Source: a virus
IMG/VR virus record: IMGVR_UViG_3300014050_000017
Coordinates: 16,134 to 80,133 of that record
DNA: 64,000 nucleotides
Strand: one strand, 5' to 3'
Shown here: piece after piece, positions 16,763 to 63,240 of the stretch
How positions within the stretch are numbered: position 1 is the first letter of the stretch
Layout of the letters: every line of letters starts with the position of its first letter
Notes under the pieces: model-generated
What the model was told of the DNA's origin: nothing
The model's database searches: none
Seen by the model: only the letters and a program-made list of their open reading frames with translations
Program-made: the position numbers and the translations under genes

Positions 16763-17080
16763 CTAGACCTTATCATCAAATAGGTGCTCCTTTAAAGTCT
16801 TGCCTTCTTTTTTTAATTTACGCTTTAACGCGTTACGTTCTCGATGGCTAAGACCACCCCAGATACCATGCTGTTCATCCATCTGGTCTGAGTACAACAA
16901 GCACTGCTTGCGTACTGGGCATTCTGGCAGGCCGTCACGGCCAAAGCAGACACCCTTAGATATTGTTGCTACTTTTCTATATTTAGTTTTATCACGTGGT
17001 GGAAACCAAAGTTCGGTGTCCATGCCGCGGCATTTGGCGTTATGTCGCCAACCCTCTACGTGACCTGCGTCGTCGTACAA
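16763..17080 (-). CDS. whiB: WhiB-family Fe-S transcription factor
   Basis: W...AKC, C..CPVRKQCL, GIWGGLS.RER signature. Confidence 0.92.
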   Translation of the reverse strand: MYDDAGHVEGWRHNAKCRGMDTELWFPPRDKTKYRKVATISKGVCFGRDGLPECPVRKQCLLYSDQMDEQHGIWGGLSHRERNALKRKLKKEGKTLKEHLFDDKV

Positions 17081-43761: not shown

Positions 43762-45264
43762 TTACGCCACAGTAACGGTGGTTCCACCGTCAAACTGACC
43801 AATTTTGATGACCACGAATTCGGCTGGACGCTGTAGAGCAACGCCAACTTCAATGTGTACCTCTCCGTTATCAATAAGGTACTGAGGGTTATTCTCAGCA
43901 TCTACCTTAACGAAGAATGCTTCTGATGGAGTTCCTCCACGAAGACCTCCCTGACTCCAGAACTGGGTCAAGAAAGATGTGCAAGCAGTTTCCAAACGAC
44001 GCCATAGAGCTGGGTCATTAGGCTCAAAGATTGCAAACTCTGTCAAGTCTGTTAGAGACTTGCGTAAGTAAATAAGGCTACGACGTACAGGTACGTACTT
44101 GTCTACATATCCACGCTTTAGTGTTCGTGCACCCATTACAACAAAGCCAGAACCTGGAATAAAACGAATAGCGTTTACAGGAGCTGCTGCGGTGTTAAGG
44201 GCATCAAGGTTTGCGTTTGTAAGTAGGCGTGTTGATACAACACCTGCAAGACGTGCCTGAAGTCCCGCTGGTGCCTTGAATACTCCGCGAGATGTGTCAG
44301 TAGAGGCGATAAGACCAGCAACAGCTGCTCCTGCTCCTACAGTAAGTGTCTTACCTGAGACTGCACCTAGTTCAAGAGTTGGGTCTGAGATAACAAGTGG
44401 TGGATAGTAAACCGCAGCTAAAGAAGATGCAGTGTATGTTCCAGCCAGAGTTAACTGGTTAGCTGGGGTGTCGTTTACGCCATCAACAACAACAAATACG
44501 TCATCGCGTCCTTCAGCATAGCTGATAGCTGCATTAACTACGTTAGCTGATGTCTGACCAGGTAGGTTAAGAACCAAAGATTCTCTAACTGTATCGTGAG
44601 CTGAAAGGCCTGCTGAGTAATCAGTAAGACCTACAGCGTTCCCTGTAGTTCCACCTGATAGAGCTTGGTTAGTTACAACTGCTGGGTTTCTTGTGCTTCC
44701 AGTATTTCCAGAGTTAAGGTCTACAAGAGTGACATAATTAGAAACAGTGTTAACTGTATCTGGTGCATAGCGAGAGTCGGTTGCAGTCATTGAAAGCTGA
44801 GTAAATGTCTCTACGATATCTGCGTCAGTTACTCCGCCGTTATAGATGGTTAGGTCAAAGTATCCAGTTTCAATAGAGTTAGAAACAGAGATGTTTAAAT
44901 CGTTACCCCAACGACCAGCGTTCTTAGCAAGAACCTGTAGTGTTGCAGATGGGCTTACAGCACGGTCGTTCAGAGAGCGTGTAGCTGTCTGTGCGCTTGC
45001 TGCAATGCGGGTTACGTATAGTTGGCTTCCACCATTTGAGAAGAACATATAAACTGCAAGTGGTAGGTCATTGCTTGTGTAAGTATTCCATGAGCCAAAC
45101 TTTGTTACATACTGGCTCCAAGATGTTACCAACGTTGGTGAGCTGATTGGGCCTCGGTCGCTCACGCCGACAAGAGCAGATACAAACTGTGATGCAGCTC
45201 CAGGAAGTGGTTGTACGGGATTTAACGTTTCTTGAACGTATACCCCAGGGCGTTGAAATGCCAT
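43762..45264 (-). CDS. tail sheath protein
   Basis: RPGVYVQE, GVFKAPAG, GARTL, YVPVRR, FEPND..LW, PAEFVVI. Confidence 0.95.
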   Translation of the reverse strand: MAFQRPGVYVQETLNPVQPLPGAASQFVSALVGVSDRGPISSPTLVTSWSQYVTKFGSWNTYTSNDLPLAVYMFFSNGGSQLYVTRIAASAQTATRSLNDRAVSPSATLQVLAKNAGRWGNDLNISVSNSIETGYFDLTIYNGGVTDADIVETFTQLSMTATDSRYAPDTVNTVSNYVTLVDLNSGNTGSTRNPAVVTNQALSGGTTGNAVGLTDYSAGLSAHDTVRESLVLNLPGQTSANVVNAAISYAEGRDDVFVVVDGVNDTPANQLTLAGTYTASSLAAVYYPPLVISDPTLELGAVSGKTLTVGAGAAVAGLIASTDTSRGVFKAPAGLQARLAGVVSTRLLTNANLDALNTAAAPVNAIRFIPGSGFVVMGARTLKRGYVDKYVPVRRSLIYLRKSLTDLTEFAIFEPNDPALWRRLETACTSFLTQFWSQGGLRGGTPSEAFFVKVDAENNPQYLIDNGEVHIEVGVALQRPAEFVVIKIGQFDGGTTVTVA

Positions 45265-46504: not shown

Positions 46505-46528
46505 CAAAGGGCCCCTTTCGGGGCCCTA
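46505..46528 (-). terminator. intrinsic terminator after the Lys-rich microprotein array
   Basis: AGGGCCCC-GAAA-GGGGCCCT followed by TTGCTTT. Confidence 0.8.
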
Positions 46529-46534
46529 AGCGGA

Positions 46535-46738
46535 TTACTTCTTTTTTATCTTCTTGATAATAGCGGCATCAATCTTCTTGTCTTCCGCCATAGTCTTTGG
46601 CTTCTTCTTTTTGCCATGGGCTTTATCAGCCTTTTCAAACTTTGCCTTCTGAGCAGGGGTCATACCCTTGGTCATCTGGGCATCTTTCTTCTTGTCTTTG
46701 GCTTCTGTGTACTTGCCACTCATAAAACCTTTAGCCAT
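46535..46738 (-). CDS. Lys-rich microprotein 5
   Basis: 67 aa, K/A-rich; TAATG coupling. Confidence 0.75.
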   Translation of the reverse strand: MAKGFMSGKYTEAKDKKKDAQMTKGMTPAQKAKFEKADKAHGKKKKPKTMAEDKKIDAAIIKKIKKK

Positions 46739-46881
46739 TACATGCCCTTCTTTCTGACCATAGATGCTTTCTTAGCCTTTGCAGGTGCACCCTTCTTTGC
46801 AGCAAACTTCTTGTTCGCTGCCTGCAGGGTCTTCATTCCGTGCTTGTTCTTTGGTTGTCCACAGCCGCAAGTCGCGCACAT
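46738..46881 (-). CDS. Lys-rich microprotein 4 with N-terminal CxxCGC
   Basis: MCATCGCGQPKNKHGMKTLQAANKKFAAKKGAPAKAKKASMVRKKGM; TAATG on both sides. Confidence 0.75.
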   Translation of the reverse strand: MCATCGCGQPKNKHGMKTLQAANKKFAAKKGAPAKAKKASMVRKKGM

Positions 46882-47057
46882 TACTTCCTCTTTCCCTTAG
46901 CACGGAGGGCAGCAAAGTCAGAACCTTCTAGCTTTCCATCCTTATCTACATCAAGCTTCTTCTGCTTAGGTGACATGCCCTTTGGAGCAGCCTTCTTAGC
47001 AGCCTTCTTTGCAGGGGCTTTCTTTTTCTTACCCATACATCCACATGTAGCGCACAT
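46881..47057 (-). CDS. Lys-rich microprotein 3 with N-terminal CxxCGC and EF-hand-like loop
   Basis: MCATCGCMGKKKKAPAKKAAKK...LDVDKDGKLEGSDFAALR; TAATG on both sides. Confidence 0.75.
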   Translation of the reverse strand: MCATCGCMGKKKKAPAKKAAKKAAPKGMSPKQKKLDVDKDGKLEGSDFAALRAKGKRK

Positions 47058-47227
47058 TACTTTTTCTTCTTTCTTGCAGCAGCCATGTTGTCTACGAGGT
47101 TAGGATAGGGACGGCCTGCTGCTTTCGCCCTAGCCTTTGCAGATGCTTTCTGCGACTTACTAAGTTTACTGGATTTACCTGGGGTTGGGTCTTTCTTATC
47201 CCAGACTGGCTTATCTTTTTTTGCCAC
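47057..47227 (-). CDS. Lys-rich microprotein 2
   Basis: GTG after AAGGAG; ...KASAKARAKAAGRPYPNLVDNMAAARKKKK. Confidence 0.75.
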   Translation of the reverse strand: MAKKDKPVWDKKDPTPGKSSKLSKSQKASAKARAKAAGRPYPNLVDNMAAARKKKK

Positions 47228-47357
47228 TTGATGCTCCTTTTTTCTTAACTTTTTTAGGAAGAGCCTTACCCTTAGGGGTTTTTTCCTCCCACTCCTTAGC
47301 CATCTCTGGGTGCTTGGCGTACATGAACTTACGCTGCTGTTGAGATTTGAATGGCAT
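47211..47357 (-). CDS. Lys-rich microprotein 1
   Basis: MPFKSQQQRKFMYAKHPEMAKEWEEKTPKGKALPKKVKKK..; TAATG coupling. Confidence 0.75.
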   Translation of the reverse strand: MPFKSQQQRKFMYAKHPEMAKEWEEKTPKGKALPKKVKKKGASSGKKR

Positions 47358-47649: not shown

Positions 47650-48180
47650 CTATTTAATGTACCCAGCAAGAGCTAGGAACTGTGGGTCATTGACCATTTC
47701 GTCGGCCATAACCTGCATACATTCTACAATGATGAGGGTATATCTTTCAGCAACAATGCCTGCCTGTTGAATAAAATAAGGGCGATAAACCTGGCCCTTC
47801 CATAGGATACGACCACGAGCTTGAAGGTCTGGGTTGCCAATGACTCCTGGTACAACGCGCTCAACATCTTCAGCGTTTAGGGTTAGGTGTAAAGAGTCAG
47901 CCCCATAGTAACCGCGCTGACTGTTCTTAATGCTTCCTTGTTTAATTACTGCACGAATAACAGGTAGGTCAAACGGGCCGCGCCAAATACGTCCACCTGT
48001 AGATGTAGATAGGTCTTGGCCAACATCGTAGATAGGGTCAAGCACAGTTGCTTCTGGGTCCCATACAAACCACTTAGCAGTAGTTCCTACAGGTCTCTTG
48101 AGGTCTTTATCAATACCGTCTAGGACCTTGTTGGTTTCAAAGTCTGCGTCAAAACGACCGCCTGGTGCGTGAGCTCTCAT
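47650..48180 (-). CDS. putative head closure / head-tail joining protein
   Basis: Position in the morphogenesis block; DPIYD.G, RI.W.G..Y. Confidence 0.5.
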   Translation of the reverse strand: MRAHAPGGRFDADFETNKVLDGIDKDLKRPVGTTAKWFVWDPEATVLDPIYDVGQDLSTSTGGRIWRGPFDLPVIRAVIKQGSIKNSQRGYYGADSLHLTLNAEDVERVVPGVIGNPDLQARGRILWKGQVYRPYFIQQAGIVAERYTLIIVECMQVMADEMVNDPQFLALAGYIK

Positions 48181-49235
48181 TCTACTCCCTGTTTGTAGAA
48201 TACAAGGTTACCCACTATTCGTTCGTCTGTAGGGCTCAACTCCGCCGCAGTAGTGCCATACTCAAGTGCTTTTTCTTTCTCTCCAATCATAAACGCACAT
48301 ACGGCTGCTAGGTCGTATGGCTGAGAGCCCCAGGCAAAAGCCTCATTTAAATAGTCCATACTCTTGTGTTTAATATTGATTGCCTTCTTAGCCCACATGT
48401 AACACTCTTCAATGCGTCCTTGGTCGTAGTGGTATTGGGCAAGCTCAACGTAAGCCTCTCGTTTACCAGGCTCTTCTTGAATAGCTAGCTTCCACCACTT
48501 AAGTTTTTCCGATTCTTCTGTAGAACATTTTGCTATGTACCGCATGGATGCGGCTCGTTCAGCTTTCCATATTGCCTTAGGTAAAGACAAATGACGTTTA
48601 AATTCAACTAACGCTTCTTCATATTTGCCATGGAAGAACAGCTCACGAGCGTAGTAGTATGCGTTGCGGTCATTGTGTGGGTCTTCCTCTACAGATAATT
48701 TAAGTAGCGGTAGATACTGTCCACGAGACTTGGTGTCATCAGCCTTGTGCCATAGTCCAAGCTGTGTCCAATATTCTTTTTCTACAAGTCGGTCGGTATA
48801 TAAACATTCGTGGACAGGGTGCATCCATCTATACCCATATCGAGCATGAATCTTGTCTCCACCAAAAGTAAGACCTGGGGTACCATCTGGATTAAAGTTC
48901 CATGTGTAGTTGTAGCGTATACGTGTTGTACCAGCTGGAACTTTCTCCATCTCTTCACGCCAACCAGGAGCAAGCATCTCATCCATATCTAGGGAAATGC
49001 AGTAGTCAATATCATCTGGTAATAAAGCTAGGGCTGCGTTGCGGGCGTCATCGAAGCGCCATGGACGTATGCTAATTTTGTGGCACACAATTCCTAGGGC
49101 TTCAGCCTTACTCACAGTCTCATCAACAGAGCCTGTGTCAGCAATCATTAGGTAGTCAGCTTCTTTAGCTGATTCATACCAGCGTTCTACAAACTGTTCC
49201 TCATTTAATGCGATGGTGTATACGGCTATTTTCAT
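48177..49235 (-). CDS. glycosyltransferase family 2 with TPR repeats
   Basis: YTIALNEE, ADTGS.D, RFD.ARN, LDMDE (DxD), HPVHE; helical TPR C-terminus. Confidence 0.9.
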   Translation of the reverse strand: MKIAVYTIALNEEQFVERWYESAKEADYLMIADTGSVDETVSKAEALGIVCHKISIRPWRFDDARNAALALLPDDIDYCISLDMDEMLAPGWREEMEKVPAGTTRIRYNYTWNFNPDGTPGLTFGGDKIHARYGYRWMHPVHECLYTDRLVEKEYWTQLGLWHKADDTKSRGQYLPLLKLSVEEDPHNDRNAYYYARELFFHGKYEEALVEFKRHLSLPKAIWKAERAASMRYIAKCSTEESEKLKWWKLAIQEEPGKREAYVELAQYHYDQGRIEECYMWAKKAINIKHKSMDYLNEAFAWGSQPYDLAAVCAFMIGEKEKALEYGTTAAELSPTDERIVGNLVFYKQGVE

Positions 49236-49250
49236 AAGTACAGTATAAAT

Positions 49251-49285
49251 TAAAAAACCCCCAGGTTGTAGTCTGGGGGCTTTTC
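49251..49285 (-). terminator. intrinsic terminator
   Basis: CCCCCAG/CTGGGGG stem plus T-run on the - strand. Confidence 0.75.
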
Positions 49286-54378: not shown

Positions 54379-57300
54379 TTATGCCTGAGCTTCTGTCCAT
54401 GAGATACGGGCTGAGATGTTGGAAGCCGCAGTTCCAATGTTAGTAGCCGTCAAAACCAGGACGTCTGGGCCGTTAGGGTAGGACGGGCTAGATACGTTGC
54501 CGTCACCAGAGATAATGGAGTTACCAAGGTCTCGAATAGAACGAAGGTCGTAGTTAGAGACGTTGTAGTTGGTTCCACCACCGCCGTTTTCTGTGAAGAA
54601 TGAGGCTACAGAGTCACCACCAATAACGCGTCCAGAGGCAGCTTGAACGTTACCTGCTCCAGGGCCAGAGTTATCAAAGTAGATAATCTGGGCTAGAGAA
54701 CCAGAACCAACTTGGTCACGGGTCCAGTCATCTGGTAGACCTACGTAGCCACGCTGAGGGGTGAAGGTAATAACGCCTGAAACAGTACCTGAGTTAGCCA
54801 CAGAAAGGGTAACAATGTTAGCTGCTACAGATGCAATCTGTGCTCCAGTTCCAATACCTGAACCAGTTACTGTCATACCTGGAACAATACCCACAGTACC
54901 TGTCGTGTCGTTAATAGTAATGGTGTTTTGTCCAGCGCTTCCAGTTACGCTTGAACGTGTAGAGTTAAGTGATGATGGGTTTGTATAGTTGGTATAAAGA
55001 ATCTGTGAAGGATTCAAGATTCCATCGATACGGAACTGTCCGTTGGTAGAAACACCGATTGAGTTCATCTGCAACTGCATGCGGTTAACAAGTTCACGCA
55101 CACCAAAGTTACGAGCAATAGCGTTATCTACAGAAGGAGCTAGACGTACTGCAAGTAGCGGACGGGTAACACCAGCTGCTACAGAAAGAAGCTTGGTCAT
55201 ACCACCAGTAAAGATAAAGTTTACGTCGTTATCAAAACGACCATCCATCATAACTGAAGAACCCCAGTGGCTGATGATTGGGGCGCAGTTTTGAAGAATA
55301 GACTGAACGGCAACCTGAGCGTCTCCACCCACACCTGTAATAGATGAGTCTGGAGTAAACACTACTGAAGTCGTAGTTCCTGAGAATGTAAATGGTTGGT
55401 CTGGATAGACGTTTGTAATAGATGCGCGACGCTGAGAGATATTAATTGGCCATCCGCGCTTGACTGAGTCATATGCCCCAATAGATGAGTAGCGCATGAT
55501 TTCGCAATTAGTAGCGTCACGAACATAGATGAATCCTGCTGGAGGAAATGAAGAAGCGTCTTCTACGTACATCACTGTATCGTTGGCCCCAAGCTGTGTT
55601 CCAAGGTTTCCTGTAGGACCAGCAACCATTTTTGTAAAGATTGATGGGTCATTAACAACTTCATAACGAGCAGGCAAGTTACCTGAACGCTGGTAAGCGC
55701 CGTTGTTAACGTTATTCATAGGTACACGGTGGCACCAGATAATCTTTCCATTAACACCGCGCATACCCCAACGAATGGTTCCTGCACCGTACCATGTGTA
55801 GTCGATGTAAACCATCTGCATACGACCAACGTCCATCTTAAAGCCAGATGGTCCTAGACCATCAAACTTGTCAATGTTCCACTGGTCTTGAGGAAAACGG
55901 TCGCTCTGTGTAATAAGGTAACGAGTACGAACACCTGTAGCACCGCGGTAAGCAGGTGCAACGTTTAGAGAGGTGTCGCTGTTAATAGAGATAACTTTGT
56001 AAGAAGAACCCTTGATAACAATTGACTGACCAACTGTAAGTTGTTTACGGAACTGGGTGTTAAGACCAGTAACAAAGCTTGAGTTTCTTGTTACGTTAAT
56101 ACGTCCAATTCCTTCTTTTTCTGAGTGACGGCGTACTGCATACATCTTTTGTCCATCGTACTCAAAGTAGAAACCGTTCTGCTCATCAAACATACCGCAA
56201 CGGGTAACCGCACCGTACCACTTACGAGCGTGTACGTATACGTTAGTACCAGCAGGGCTCTGGTCAATAGTTGGAAGGGTCTGTGTAAGAGTTACTTGAT
56301 ATTCAAATGTATTAACATCAACAATACGAGTAACAAGAATATCGTTACCGTTAAATGGATTGTAGGTATAGCGAGTTTTAACGCCTTCAATATCAATTGT
56401 TACGCCAGCCTGCATACCGTGGTCTTGTACTGTTCTAACAGTGACTGTATTAAGCCCAATAGAGCCGCCAGAAATAATCATGCTTTCTACGTCAAATACA
56501 GGAGTTAGCTGTGCACCTGTTGAGAACTGCATTCCCTTACCTGACTGGTAACGGAAGTAGCGGCGGGTTTGACGAATAACTTGAGAACCCATTGAGTTGG
56601 TTGCAGTAGAGATAGAAACACCACCGTCAAATGGGCGTTGTACAACATAGCTATCACCCTTAGTCATAATCAAAGCAGTCTGTGGAACTGATACCGCTGA
56701 TTGCTGACGTGATAATGCAAATTCAAGAGTTGTCTGAGTAGGAACTTTAGTTACCTGCCAGTTACCATCAATGCTGTTAGTACCAGATACAACGATAAGG
56801 TTTCCTGGGAACACGCCGTGTGGCTGGTCAAAGATAGCAGTTACAGTTGAGATTGGGGCTGCACCATCAACAGTAGCTCTCCAACGAGCAAGGTTGTTTG
56901 TTCCACCGATTGGGAAGTTACCGCCAGGGATATGAGCGCCATCAAAGATATCTCCACCATAGATAGATGTAAGAGTACCTGAGGCAATATCACCTGATAC
57001 AACACCACGAGCCTGGTATTGGAAAGTGGTTGTTGTAGGAACTGCTGCTACAAGAGATGTACCTTCTGCAAGGAAGTTAAGGGTTTCTTGTACAGAAACA
57101 ATCTGTCCTACAGAAAGTCCATGAGGAAGAGCTGTTGTTACTGTGATAGTTGAACGTGGGCGTACGCCGTCACCAATAACTGATACAACGTCAAATGAGT
57201 TACCACCAGAACCCTTAGCAAAGAAGGATGGGTATCCGTTAGCTAGGAATAGCGCTTCCCACTTAGATGGCTGTACAGAGTATTCAAAGTCTGTATCCAT

Positions 57301-57675
57301 AAGTGACTGTGGGTTTGAAGTACGAAGCTTCTGTGCACCATCAATAAACGTGTCATCAAATGTGACCTTTTGGTGCTCATCATCAACAACAATCTGAATT
57401 GTGTCGTTGGCAGTCATGCCAGTTGTATCAACGCTATTGCTTAGTTGAATTACAGTCTGGGTTACAGTACTGCCTTGAGGGTTAGCAATATTTGCATCTG
57501 GATAGTTATATGTTACAGAGCAGGTCTGGGTAGGGTCAGAAAAGTTAAATAAGACTTTATTGACAGTAGCGTTGACGATTAGGAAGAAATGGATTTTCTT
57601 AATATAACGGTCGATGACAATCTGTTTGGTTGTCGGATTAAATGTGTAATACTCAGGCGCAATATTGCGTGCCAT
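54379..57675 (-). CDS. large virion structural protein (fibre/baseplate appendage)
   Basis: 1098 aa; S.PQSL.DTDFEY..Q..KWE, RQTRRYFRYQSGKG, HWG.SV.MDG.FD. Confidence 0.7.
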   Translation of the reverse strand: MARNIAPEYYTFNPTTKQIVIDRYIKKIHFFLIVNATVNKVLFNFSDPTQTCSVTYNYPDANIANPQGSTVTQTVIQLSNSVDTTGMTANDTIQIVVDDEHQKVTFDDTFIDGAQKLRTSNPQSLMDTDFEYSVQPSKWEALFLANGYPSFFAKGSGGNSFDVVSVIGDGVRPRSTITVTTALPHGLSVGQIVSVQETLNFLAEGTSLVAAVPTTTTFQYQARGVVSGDIASGTLTSIYGGDIFDGAHIPGGNFPIGGTNNLARWRATVDGAAPISTVTAIFDQPHGVFPGNLIVVSGTNSIDGNWQVTKVPTQTTLEFALSRQQSAVSVPQTALIMTKGDSYVVQRPFDGGVSISTATNSMGSQVIRQTRRYFRYQSGKGMQFSTGAQLTPVFDVESMIISGGSIGLNTVTVRTVQDHGMQAGVTIDIEGVKTRYTYNPFNGNDILVTRIVDVNTFEYQVTLTQTLPTIDQSPAGTNVYVHARKWYGAVTRCGMFDEQNGFYFEYDGQKMYAVRRHSEKEGIGRINVTRNSSFVTGLNTQFRKQLTVGQSIVIKGSSYKVISINSDTSLNVAPAYRGATGVRTRYLITQSDRFPQDQWNIDKFDGLGPSGFKMDVGRMQMVYIDYTWYGAGTIRWGMRGVNGKIIWCHRVPMNNVNNGAYQRSGNLPARYEVVNDPSIFTKMVAGPTGNLGTQLGANDTVMYVEDASSFPPAGFIYVRDATNCEIMRYSSIGAYDSVKRGWPINISQRRASITNVYPDQPFTFSGTTTSVVFTPDSSITGVGGDAQVAVQSILQNCAPIISHWGSSVMMDGRFDNDVNFIFTGGMTKLLSVAAGVTRPLLAVRLAPSVDNAIARNFGVRELVNRMQLQMNSIGVSTNGQFRIDGILNPSQILYTNYTNPSSLNSTRSSVTGSAGQNTITINDTTGTVGIVPGMTVTGSGIGTGAQIASVAANIVTLSVANSGTVSGVITFTPQRGYVGLPDDWTRDQVGSGSLAQIIYFDNSGPGAGNVQAASGRVIGGDSVASFFTENGGGGTNYNVSNYDLRSIRDLGNSIISGDGNVSSPSYPNGPDVLVLTATNIGTAASNISARISWTEAQA

Positions 57676-62169: not shown

Positions 62170-63240
62170 TTAGTTGGTTTCTGCAATAACAACAGACTGG
62201 TCAGTAATAAGACCAAGACCGAAGATTGAGTACCAAGCAAGTGCATGCTCACGACCGAAGTCGAGGATACCACCGTCACGAAGTTCGACTGGTAGTGAGA
62301 TAGCGTGACCGAATGCGTTATCTCCAATGAAGATAGCATCGTAGCGGTCAGACTGTCCGTTACCTGTGAACTGTGCAGGGGTGATGTAACCTCCACCAGG
62401 TGTAACAGTTGGGTTAGCAACTGCGCTGTCAGCGGTGTAGTTAGTACCAGCACCACCAGCAACCTTACGTACCTGTGTGGTCTCGATGAATACGCAGTCG
62501 TACAAACGACCAACTTCACCAAGCATGAAGTTACCAGGAGCAGCGTACTTGGTTACTTCGATAAACTCTGGGTTATCACGAAGCTGACGGCTCTGGTGTG
62601 GGTGGATGAACGCAACATAAGTTTCGCCCAACCGTGGGATGTTCTTGGTTGCAAGTGTCTCAACGACGTCCTTGACAGTGTGAGGTGTCAAGTAGTAGCC
62701 ACCAGTCATAGAAGCACGTGATGTGCCCTTTGTACCGTATGCGTACCAGTTGTTGACTGCTGAGAGGTTAGTGCGGTCTTCACCGTAAAGGGTTGAAGTC
62801 GCTGCATAGAGTGTGTCGCGTGATAGCTGGTCAAGATAGATAGCCATGTTACGACCGAGAAGACGTGAGGCTGATGCCATGACGTCATCGAATGATGCAT
62901 TGAGCAAGAGCTCTGATACAGCAAGAGCATAACCATGCTCTGTTACTGTGATTGAGAACTGCTGTGCAGTTAATGCGTTGGTCTGCATACGAACACCTTC
63001 GACAAGTGCATTAGCAAAGCCGAGGTTGTTGTAACGCAGGAAGTTAATCTGTAGACCAGGTGCAACACCAAGTTCAGTCTTCTTGACTGCAAACTGCTCA
63101 AAGCGAAGGATAGGCATTGCCTGGAACAAGATTTCCTTGGACCAGATAACCTGAATCGCCTGAGTAAGCTGGGTGTTAGTACCTGAGTATGCTGTTGGGG
63201 CTGCGGCTAGATTGCCAGTACCCGTAATACCAGATGCCAT
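62170..63240 (-). CDS. major capsid protein (HK97 fold, N4-gp56-like family)
   Basis: AAGGAG RBS; follows the scaffold; F.RY, L.EG, EHG, YVAFIHP, GEVG...V.FIET. Confidence 0.85.
   Translation of the reverse strand: MASGITGTGNLAAAPTAYSGTNTQLTQAIQVIWSKEILFQAMPILRFEQFAVKKTELGVAPGLQINFLRYNNLGFANALVEGVRMQTNALTAQQFSITVTEHGYALAVSELLLNASFDDVMASASRLLGRNMAIYLDQLSRDTLYAATSTLYGEDRTNLSAVNNWYAYGTKGTSRASMTGGYYLTPHTVKDVVETLATKNIPRLGETYVAFIHPHQSRQLRDNPEFIEVTKYAAPGNFMLGEVGRLYDCVFIETTQVRKVAGGAGTNYTADSAVANPTVTPGGGYITPAQFTGNGQSDRYDAIFIGDNAFGHAISLPVELRDGGILDFGREHALAWYSIFGLGLITDQSVVIAETN

Follow-up and report, generated by a model that had tools for sequence, protein, structure and literature searches.

Lysine-rich microproteins with a HypB-type N-terminal cysteine motif in the virion gene block of an IMG/VR virus

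A run of five microprotein genes

We analysed a window of 64,000 nucleotides that corresponds to bases 16134-80133 of a single 80,133-bp IMG/VR virus record (IMGVR_UViG_3300014050_000017); the record is linear and 83% complete by the CheckV estimate. The minus strand carries almost all of the window genes, among them a run of five microprotein genes, two of which encode lysine-rich proteins that open with the same seven residues, MCATCGC, here termed the head. Run gene 3 (46881..47057, minus strand) encodes a protein of 58 amino acids (aa) that combines an MCxxCGC head with an AKK-type linker, one EF-hand/dockerin-type loop-helix and a poly-Lys end (net charge +14). Run gene 4 (46738..46881, minus strand) encodes a 47-aa protein composed of an MCxxCGC head, an invariant His14 and a Lys/Ala-rich tail (net charge +13). 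Head codons 1-7 are read directly on the minus strand at 47037..47057 for the 58-aa protein and at 46861..46881 for the 47-aa protein.

The other three members of the run, all on the minus strand, encode Lys-rich microproteins that are headless in the window. Run gene 1 (47211..47357) is an open reading frame (ORF) for a 48-aa protein that is kept in related loci. The 56-aa product of run gene 2 (47057..47227, GTG start) matches phrog_34011 (E 2e-19), and its family is present in arrays of other lineages too. Run gene 5 (46535..46738) encodes a 67-aa protein, which has head-bearing homologues in some relatives. All five microproteins are small (4.9-7.5 kDa), strongly basic (net charge +12 to +15, isoelectric point 10.1-10.6) and of low complexity, with about 10% hydrophobic residues, and in this respect they have the makeup of protamine-type proteins.

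The genes of the run are tightly packed. Four of the five start codons overlap the stop codon of the preceding gene in a TAATG arrangement, and the fifth is a GTG behind GGAG. The run is closed by an intrinsic terminator (46508..46527, minus strand) with an 8-bp stem, seven GC pairs and a T-rich tail. Upstream of the run lies a gene for a GT2 glycosyltransferase fused to tetratricopeptide (TPR) repeats (48177-49235, minus strand; phrog_13126, E 3e-109), preceded by a terminator-like hairpin (49252..49285). Because of this second hairpin, at 49285..49252 on the minus strand, the GT2-TPR gene, a 176-aa gene, a 94-aa gene and the five microprotein genes probably form one transcription unit. The run itself is flanked by homologues of BRock gp142 and gp139 and belongs to the head-to-tail gene block.

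Conservation of the cysteine head and the EF-hand-type loop

The initial annotation noted that both adjacent ORFs open with MCATCGC in differing synonymous codons (TGCGCGACTTGCGGCTGT and TGCGCTACATGTGGATGT), as can be read directly from the DNA, and took this as a sign of selection at the protein level. A six-frame search of all 80,133 bp of the record finds CxxCGC at these two heads alone. In 29 related viral loci and the window together, 23 different 24-nt sequences encode the head, with synonymous variation at C2, C5, G6 and C7: TGT and TGC alternate at every Cys, and three Gly codons are in use at G6. These four residues stay the same while their codons vary freely, which places selection at the level of the protein, as had been proposed, and the 23 synonymous codings rule out both an RNA or DNA signal and chance.

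A homologue search in 5.8 billion clustered proteins (clusters at 90% identity) yielded 190 homologous clusters for the 58-aa protein, 164 for the 47-aa protein and 280 for the headless 67-aa protein; all matches are metagenomic and none is named. The start of each family was counted over 120 listed homologues (of the 190, 164 and 280). An MCxxCGC start is present in 114/120 listed homologues of the 47-aa protein and in 96/120 of the 58-aa protein, and most homologues without it start from an internal Met, apparently through gene calls that are too short. In the alignment of the 47-aa family, M1, C2, T4, C5, G6, C7, P10, K13, H14 and G15 are invariant, and in the 58-aa family M1, C2, C5 and C7 are; G6 is nearly invariant across the alignments. 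Loss of the Cys residues in homologues had been named beforehand as the observation that would speak against a functional head; they are retained. The residues Ala3 and Thr4, which are non-ligands, are strongly preferred as well (148 of 214 heads in two families).

The loop of the 58-aa protein was described initially as EF-hand-like. It comprises residues 36-48 (DVDKDGKLEGSDF; 46914..46952, minus strand) and was detected by a regular expression modelled on the PROSITE PS00018 pattern, of which it is the sole match in the six-frame translation. Residues 36-47 fit the 12-residue loop, with oxygen ligands at positions 1, 3, 5 and 12, Gly at position 6 and a hydrophobic residue at position 8. The expression also fits 119 of the 120 listed homologues of the 58-aa protein, with Asp/Asn interchange at positions 3 and 5. 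As a single copy the loop falls short of the Pfam cut-offs (Dockerin_1, 16.8 bits with 22.9 needed; EF-hand_1, 14.9 bits with 25.4 needed), and the top PDB sequence matches of the protein are nearly all EF-hand or dockerin proteins, none of them significant alone. A family profile search retrieved 445 representatives at E <=1e-3 among 1.84 billion proteins, many of them longer and with two copies of the module. Several of these two-copy relatives (profile E down to 1e-14) exceed the Pfam cut-offs for Dockerin_1, EF-hand_7 and EF-hand_1. Together with the fit in the homologues, this establishes the loop as genuine. Both ORFs are real genes, and both the head and the loop are conserved.

EF-hand loops function in pairs. 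With one loop per peptide, the 58-aa protein would presumably need to dimerise. In longer proteins too, this EF-hand-type module often has a zinc-ribbon-like Cys cluster beside it, which precedes the module in P0361 and P0383 and follows it in P0372, so that a Cys cluster and this Ca loop are paired repeatedly outside the microproteins.

Named families and cultured phages add little to this picture. No Pfam or PHROG family covers the 47-aa or the 58-aa protein, and matches in the ESM Atlas are to unnamed clusters only. A tblastn search of both microproteins and two non-basic head peptides against 50,697 phage records gave no match, and the BLAST low-complexity filter may mask Lys-rich matches in it. 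Full-text searches did not find the motif in a phage context, and for the string MCATCGC they gave one unrelated primer paper. The family is real, strongly conserved and, it appears, undescribed, and it places a known metal-binding motif in a new setting.

Distribution of the head among phages and cells

We gathered 29 loci through the neighbouring 176-aa gene, independently of the presence of a head. All 27 loci that reach far enough downstream retain at least one head, usually two. The carrier varies from locus to locus: the head is found on the EF-hand tail, on the 47-aa-type tail or on homologues of the 67-aa protein (L025, L027, L028, L029 and, with a GTG start, L019). Other N- or C-terminal Cys clusters occur in 13 of the 120 listed homologues of the 67-aa protein, one of them C-terminal, and some relatives have enlarged heads with 6-8 Cys in about 20-27 residues in a CxC and CxxC arrangement.

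Two of the head-bearing 67-aa homologues have unusual starts. In L029 (3148-3429, plus strand) the protein has nine Cys within about 27 residues, and the sole in-frame start before the first Cys is an ATT directly after the upstream stop codon; in L019 (5150-5374, plus strand) the head follows a GTG that overlaps the stop codon (TAGTG). The ATT in L029 and the GTG in L019 suggest re-initiation at non-ATG codons in the coupled arrays. In several close relatives (L004:5587-5736, L020:4532-4681 and L022:4961-5101) run gene 2 is swapped for a gene encoding a 46-49-aa basic protein with two conserved Cys. Judged from such gene orders, shuffling of the array proceeds one gene at a time.

A scan of IMG/VR for DNA encoding the exact head, with Ala-Thr required, found at least 120 stretches. 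The counts that follow cover 147 viral loci, among the matches listed. They contain at least 225 heads on at least 181 distinct peptides, all of 19-84 aa, and 149 head genes have a start codon that overlaps the upstream stop codon. About 109 of the loci are BRock-like; the 38 others include at least two further lineages with different capsid genes, and there too the heads are found within coupled arrays of small genes adjoining capsid genes. These comparisons show the head to be modular, shifting among at least three basic tail families, and onto non-basic tails in other lineages. No partner gene family co-occurs with the heads across all lineages in the 147 loci.

Residue 14 is distinguished in the same sample. 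In the 47-aa protein it is encoded by CAC (46840..46842, minus strand) and is a candidate extra metal ligand. It is His in 78 and Cys in 23 of the 181 distinct head peptides listed (101/181 in total), across at least six unrelated tail types, and no other position between 8 and 20 is enriched in His or Cys except Cys9 and Cys18 of the large heads. His14 is invariant in the 47-aa family; the 58-aa protein has no His. A folded metal site predicts just such a constantly spaced ligand, which is hard to square with disulfide chemistry.

Two further families were seen next to the arrays of other lineages. One, of about 87 aa and basic, lies in the same arrays (L033:6989-7252, plus strand) and also in Roseobacter phage CRP-4 (L151:3495-3764). 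Its cultured carriers are CRP-4, CRP-5, SIO1-like roseophages, Celeribacter and Lentibacter phages and the cyanophages S-CBS2 and KBS-S-2A, in which the gene is followed by small Lys-rich genes without Cys heads. The second family, of 83-160 aa, has an N-terminal Cys cluster and a conserved C-terminal part and lies just upstream of head arrays in 18 other-lineage loci (for example L033:5520-5771, L050:4675-5004, L105 on the minus strand just upstream of the array, L043 and L110); it has no Pfam match.

HypB is the nickel metallochaperone of [NiFe] hydrogenase. In E. coli its N-terminal CxxCGC motif holds Ni(II) in a square-planar site of picomolar affinity, formed by the N-terminal amine together with the Cys2, Cys5 and Cys7 thiolates, and a short motif peptide is sufficient to bind Ni(II) and Zn(II) (PMC12284835). 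The HypB chemistry cited in the initial annotation agrees with this publication, and the interpretation given there is supported in part, as regards protein-level selection, the HypB-type motif and the loop. The best NCBIfam match of both phage proteins is HypB_prefix_1 (NF053667), with 22.1 bits and E 3e-4 for the 47-aa protein and 20.0 bits and E 1.3e-3 for the 58-aa protein; a scan of the three headless neighbours gave no NCBIfam match. DNA encoding the exact MCATCGC sequence was sought in one genome per species of 185,579 prokaryotic species, with at least 120 matches. HypB-like protein starts make up 74 of the 120 MCATCGC-coding matches listed, many of them from Nocardia, Mycobacterium, Pseudonocardia and other Actinomycetota; of the 74, 37 share Gly8 too with the 47-aa protein. 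The head is therefore a HypB-type motif, and the phage proteins begin with the same seven, often eight, residues as the HypB nickel site of the phylum to which the host is assigned below.

Two other groups of cellular matches were observed. In Methanothrix genomes (L194:4189-4350, plus strand; L165, L236, L242, L258) a conserved microprotein of about 52 aa has the MCATCGC head followed by a zinc ribbon. Its similarity to HypA is weak (E about 0.001-0.01) and below cut-offs, and its neighbours in L194 are a transposase and a DUF2099 protein, with no hyp genes, which gives it the look of an archaeal head-plus-ribbon peptide that stands alone. A 28-codon ORF opening with MCATCGC recurs in L175, L178, L200, L231, L235, L262, L264 and L267, which include Roseobacter, Pararhodobacter and Vannielia. 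About 12 open codons lie upstream of it, and it could belong to an alternative reading frame within a conserved gene instead of encoding a real peptide.

The wider gene content of the window is that of a myovirus structural block, with a major capsid protein (62170..63240), a tail sheath protein (43762..45264), tube, tape measure and baseplate genes, and collagen-like and other large fibre or virion proteins. The capsid protein has 72% identity, and the sheath protein about 38% identity, to proteins of the Streptomyces phage BRock group, and a gene for a WhiB-family transcription factor is present (16763-17080, minus strand; Pfam PF02467, 61 bits). Because of the WhiB gene and these two likenesses we assign this freshwater virus, by gene content, to the actinobacterial phages. 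No WhiB gene was found in the short flanks of the other head-bearing loci, and there is no DNA-level similarity to cultured phages.

The best cultured relatives of a 1098-aa virion protein (54379-57675, minus strand) are the marine Synechococcus myoviruses S-CAM1, S-PM2 and S-RIM44 (33-37% identity). With a cyanomyovirus-like protein beside a capsid and a sheath like those of Streptomyces phages, the structural block is mosaic. A cyanophage host, which the 1098-aa protein could suggest, was rejected in view of the WhiB gene and the capsid and sheath similarities, which point to Actinobacteria. Synechococcus phage S-EIV1 was likewise ruled out as a relative, as the DNA polymerase alone matches. 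The whole record, at its 83% completeness, gave no match to the HypB/CobW/UreG-type GTPase domain (PF02492) or to HypA, and no Ni-dependent enzyme or processing peptidase was seen among 40 ORFs scanned.

Possible functions and comparison with known systems

The explanation that we favour, with a probability of roughly 0.45 for the whole of it, is that the head-bearing microproteins are late metal-capped polycations that travel with the packaged DNA. Both peptides would be translated late, alongside the virion proteins. The initiator Met would be removed, and one Ni(II) or Zn(II) ion would be held by Cys2, through both its freed amine and its thiolate, and by the Cys5 and Cys7 thiolates, with the invariant His14 of the 47-aa protein probably supplying an extra ligand. 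The Lys/Ala-rich tails could bind a polyanion, most likely phage DNA, and the Ca2+ loop of the 58-aa protein could pair by joining a second copy of the peptide. We propose that the peptides accompany the DNA as protamine- or nucleocapsid-like counter-ions; outside the cell, under oxidising conditions and high Ca2+, they would gain stability or links from the metal head and the Ca loop, and these would slacken in the cytoplasm, which is reducing and low in Ca2+.

That the head binds a transition-metal ion like the head of HypB, with His14 participating in the 47-aa protein, seems to us very probable, and the HypB peptide data argue strongly for metal binding. The composition of the tails suggests DNA binding, and the gene context is consistent with packaging into the virion.

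Several observations weigh against metal-capped polycations that travel with the DNA. The HypB_prefix_1 scores lie under the curated cut-off of 30 bits; they are low because the first 30 or so of the 72 model positions alone align. The AlphaFold2 models of both microproteins are of low confidence (predicted local distance difference test score, pLDDT, of 60 for the 47-aa protein, with a single helix at 19-31, and of 59 for the 58-aa protein, with helices at 30-34 and 45-55 flanking the loop). More distant relatives of the 58-aa protein have a longer loop without the Asp ligands, so Ca binding would not be universal. An amine-plus-three-thiolate site is saturated by one peptide and would not cross-link peptides by itself. 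In other lineages the head is carried by Pro/Asn/Met-rich, Gly/Asn-rich and even acidic tails; its role is therefore not bound to DNA binding alone, and these non-basic tails favour a common tag or cap. In Streptomyces phage BRock, whose capsid protein is closely related, the stretch from capsid gene to sheath gene is free of small genes, so the microproteins are dispensable for building this kind of capsid. Finally, neither protein is present in any cultured phage of the August 2025 collection, and no cultured relative was found.

The breadth of tails that bear the head is what most invites another explanation. The same seven residues stand on at least eight tail families that are unrelated to one another, some of them acidic or Pro/Asn-rich, always on peptides of 19-84 aa in coupled arrays adjoining capsid genes in at least three lineages, and each array keeps at least one head though its carrier changes. 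The head could then be a sorting or anchoring tag that brings changing small cargo peptides to one partner, such as the procapsid interior, the portal or the scaffold, with the metal as a docking means or incidental; the variable internal proteins of T4 have a common N-terminal capsid-targeting sequence. The strong preference for the non-ligands Ala3 and Thr4 would suit a docking surface, but the viral sample is biased because the scan required Ala-Thr, and the same preference in actinobacterial HypB points to a chemical rather than a docking reason. Moreover, no gene family accompanies the heads in all lineages, and we consider such a tag rather unlikely. Less likely again are metal-free thiols, either as a disulfide redox latch that is oxidised outside and reduced on entry or as DNA-tethered sacrificial thiols against radicals in sunlit water. 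Cys-rich heads of variable size (3 to 8 Cys) would fit them, the short head, with its odd number of Cys, has one to spare for a bond between molecules, and the disulfide locking of protamines is a precedent (PMC8230241). On the other side, the spacing and the invariant Gly6 exactly match a known metal site, a His at fixed position 14 suits metal and not disulfide, and the cellular proteins with the same head sequence have it as the HypB nickel site.

The identity with actinobacterial HypB N-termini, half of which add Gly8 among those listed (37/74), could also reflect mimicry of HypB or metal trafficking, that is, a late seizure of host Ni or Zn that starves the Ni enzymes of the host, or a gathering of metal for the phage or its next host. 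In E. coli, SlyD passes Ni to the HypB tip (PMC12284835), so that a copied tip might tap the same route. We regard this as improbable: the record, 83% complete, holds no HypB G-domain, HypA or recognisable Ni enzyme, and such a role requires neither Lys-rich tails nor placement in the virion block. The position of small cationic peptides at the end of a late unit, and after small membrane proteins in some other lineages, recalls lysis or envelope-active peptides. The GT2-TPR gene, three genes upstream in the same terminator-bounded unit, would allow precursors whose Cys are modified. Either case is very improbable, as the tails are almost without hydrophobic residues and without amphipathic design, and the conserved part is a seven-residue N-terminus with no leader of usual length. 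S-glycosylation of Cys by GT2-TPR was considered separately and rejected, since the protein has no sequence match to solved S-glycosyltransferases (its TPR part alone matches structures) and the glycosyltransferase gene is absent beside the arrays of other lineages.

A bolder claim, which we hold to be doubtful, goes beyond metal-capped polycations in this one virus. The head may be a transferable N-terminal metallo-tag, the mark of a new class of phage microproteins, which loads Ni or Zn onto small cargo peptides in several unrelated uncultured aquatic phage lineages, where these would be packed with the DNA or would tap host nickel by copying the HypB tip; no parallel to such a system has been described for tailed phages. 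According to the general view, tailed phages pack naked DNA that is neutralised by small ions and polyamines, with few known internal proteins. If metal-capped polycations do travel with the DNA, widespread polycationic peptides with a metal site would be a new component of phage particles or of late infection. The family is large: public metagenomes contain hundreds of its clusters, and it spans at least three phage lineages. For bioinorganic chemists, the peptides would offer a natural minimal amine-plus-three-thiolate site outside hydrogenase maturation, and they would tie phage biology to the trace-metal (Ni, Zn) and Ca chemistry of lakes. Both are short enough for synthesis, so the central claim is testable within weeks.

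Among known systems, retroviral nucleocapsid proteins such as HIV-1 NC are small basic proteins with CCHC zinc knuckles that bind and condense nucleic acid (PMC11209390). The 47-aa phage protein is likewise small and very basic and has C2, C5, C7 and H14. It differs in spacing (C-x2-C-x-C-x6-H versus C-x2-C-x4-H-x4-C) and in coming from a double-stranded DNA phage with no polyprotein cleavage; its 58-aa neighbour has no His. Disulfides between Cys residues lock mammalian protamines onto DNA, with one Zn bound by P2 (PMC8230241), and small basic protamine-like core proteins condense the genomes of eukaryotic double-stranded DNA viruses (PMC6163548, PMC10548178). With mammalian P1 and P2, baculovirus P6.9 and adenovirus VII the phage peptides have in common that they are polycations of 5-7 kDa, whereas they are Lys-rich rather than Arg-rich and are placed beside virion genes by gene context. 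We found no report of protamine-like core proteins in tailed phages.

The other comparisons concern single parts of the peptides. The internal proteins of T4 are also variable, small and late-encoded and have only a short N-terminus in common; the T4 tag, however, is without Cys and is removed by the prohead protease, and no cleavage site or protease link is seen here. The 6-8-Cys heads of relatives, in CxC and CxxC arrangement, resemble bacterial metallothioneins, whereas the window proteins have three Cys each and no sequence similarity to known metallothionein families, which sets them apart from that class. The loop resembles EF-hands and type I dockerins in its 12 residues with Asp/Asn at positions 1, 3 and 5, Gly6, Leu8 and Asp12, followed by a helix; in contrast to these, the window peptide has one copy set in a poly-Lys peptide, with no pairing within one domain. 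HypB is a GTPase-domain protein with a His-rich linker; the phage proteins, of 47 and 58 aa, have a Lys-rich tail in place of both, and their genes adjoin virion genes in a record with no hyp genes, so that on the available sequence neither microprotein is a HypB. What both have in common with HypB is the arrangement of the head itself, with Cys2, Cys5, Gly6 and Cys7 placed directly after the initiator Met.

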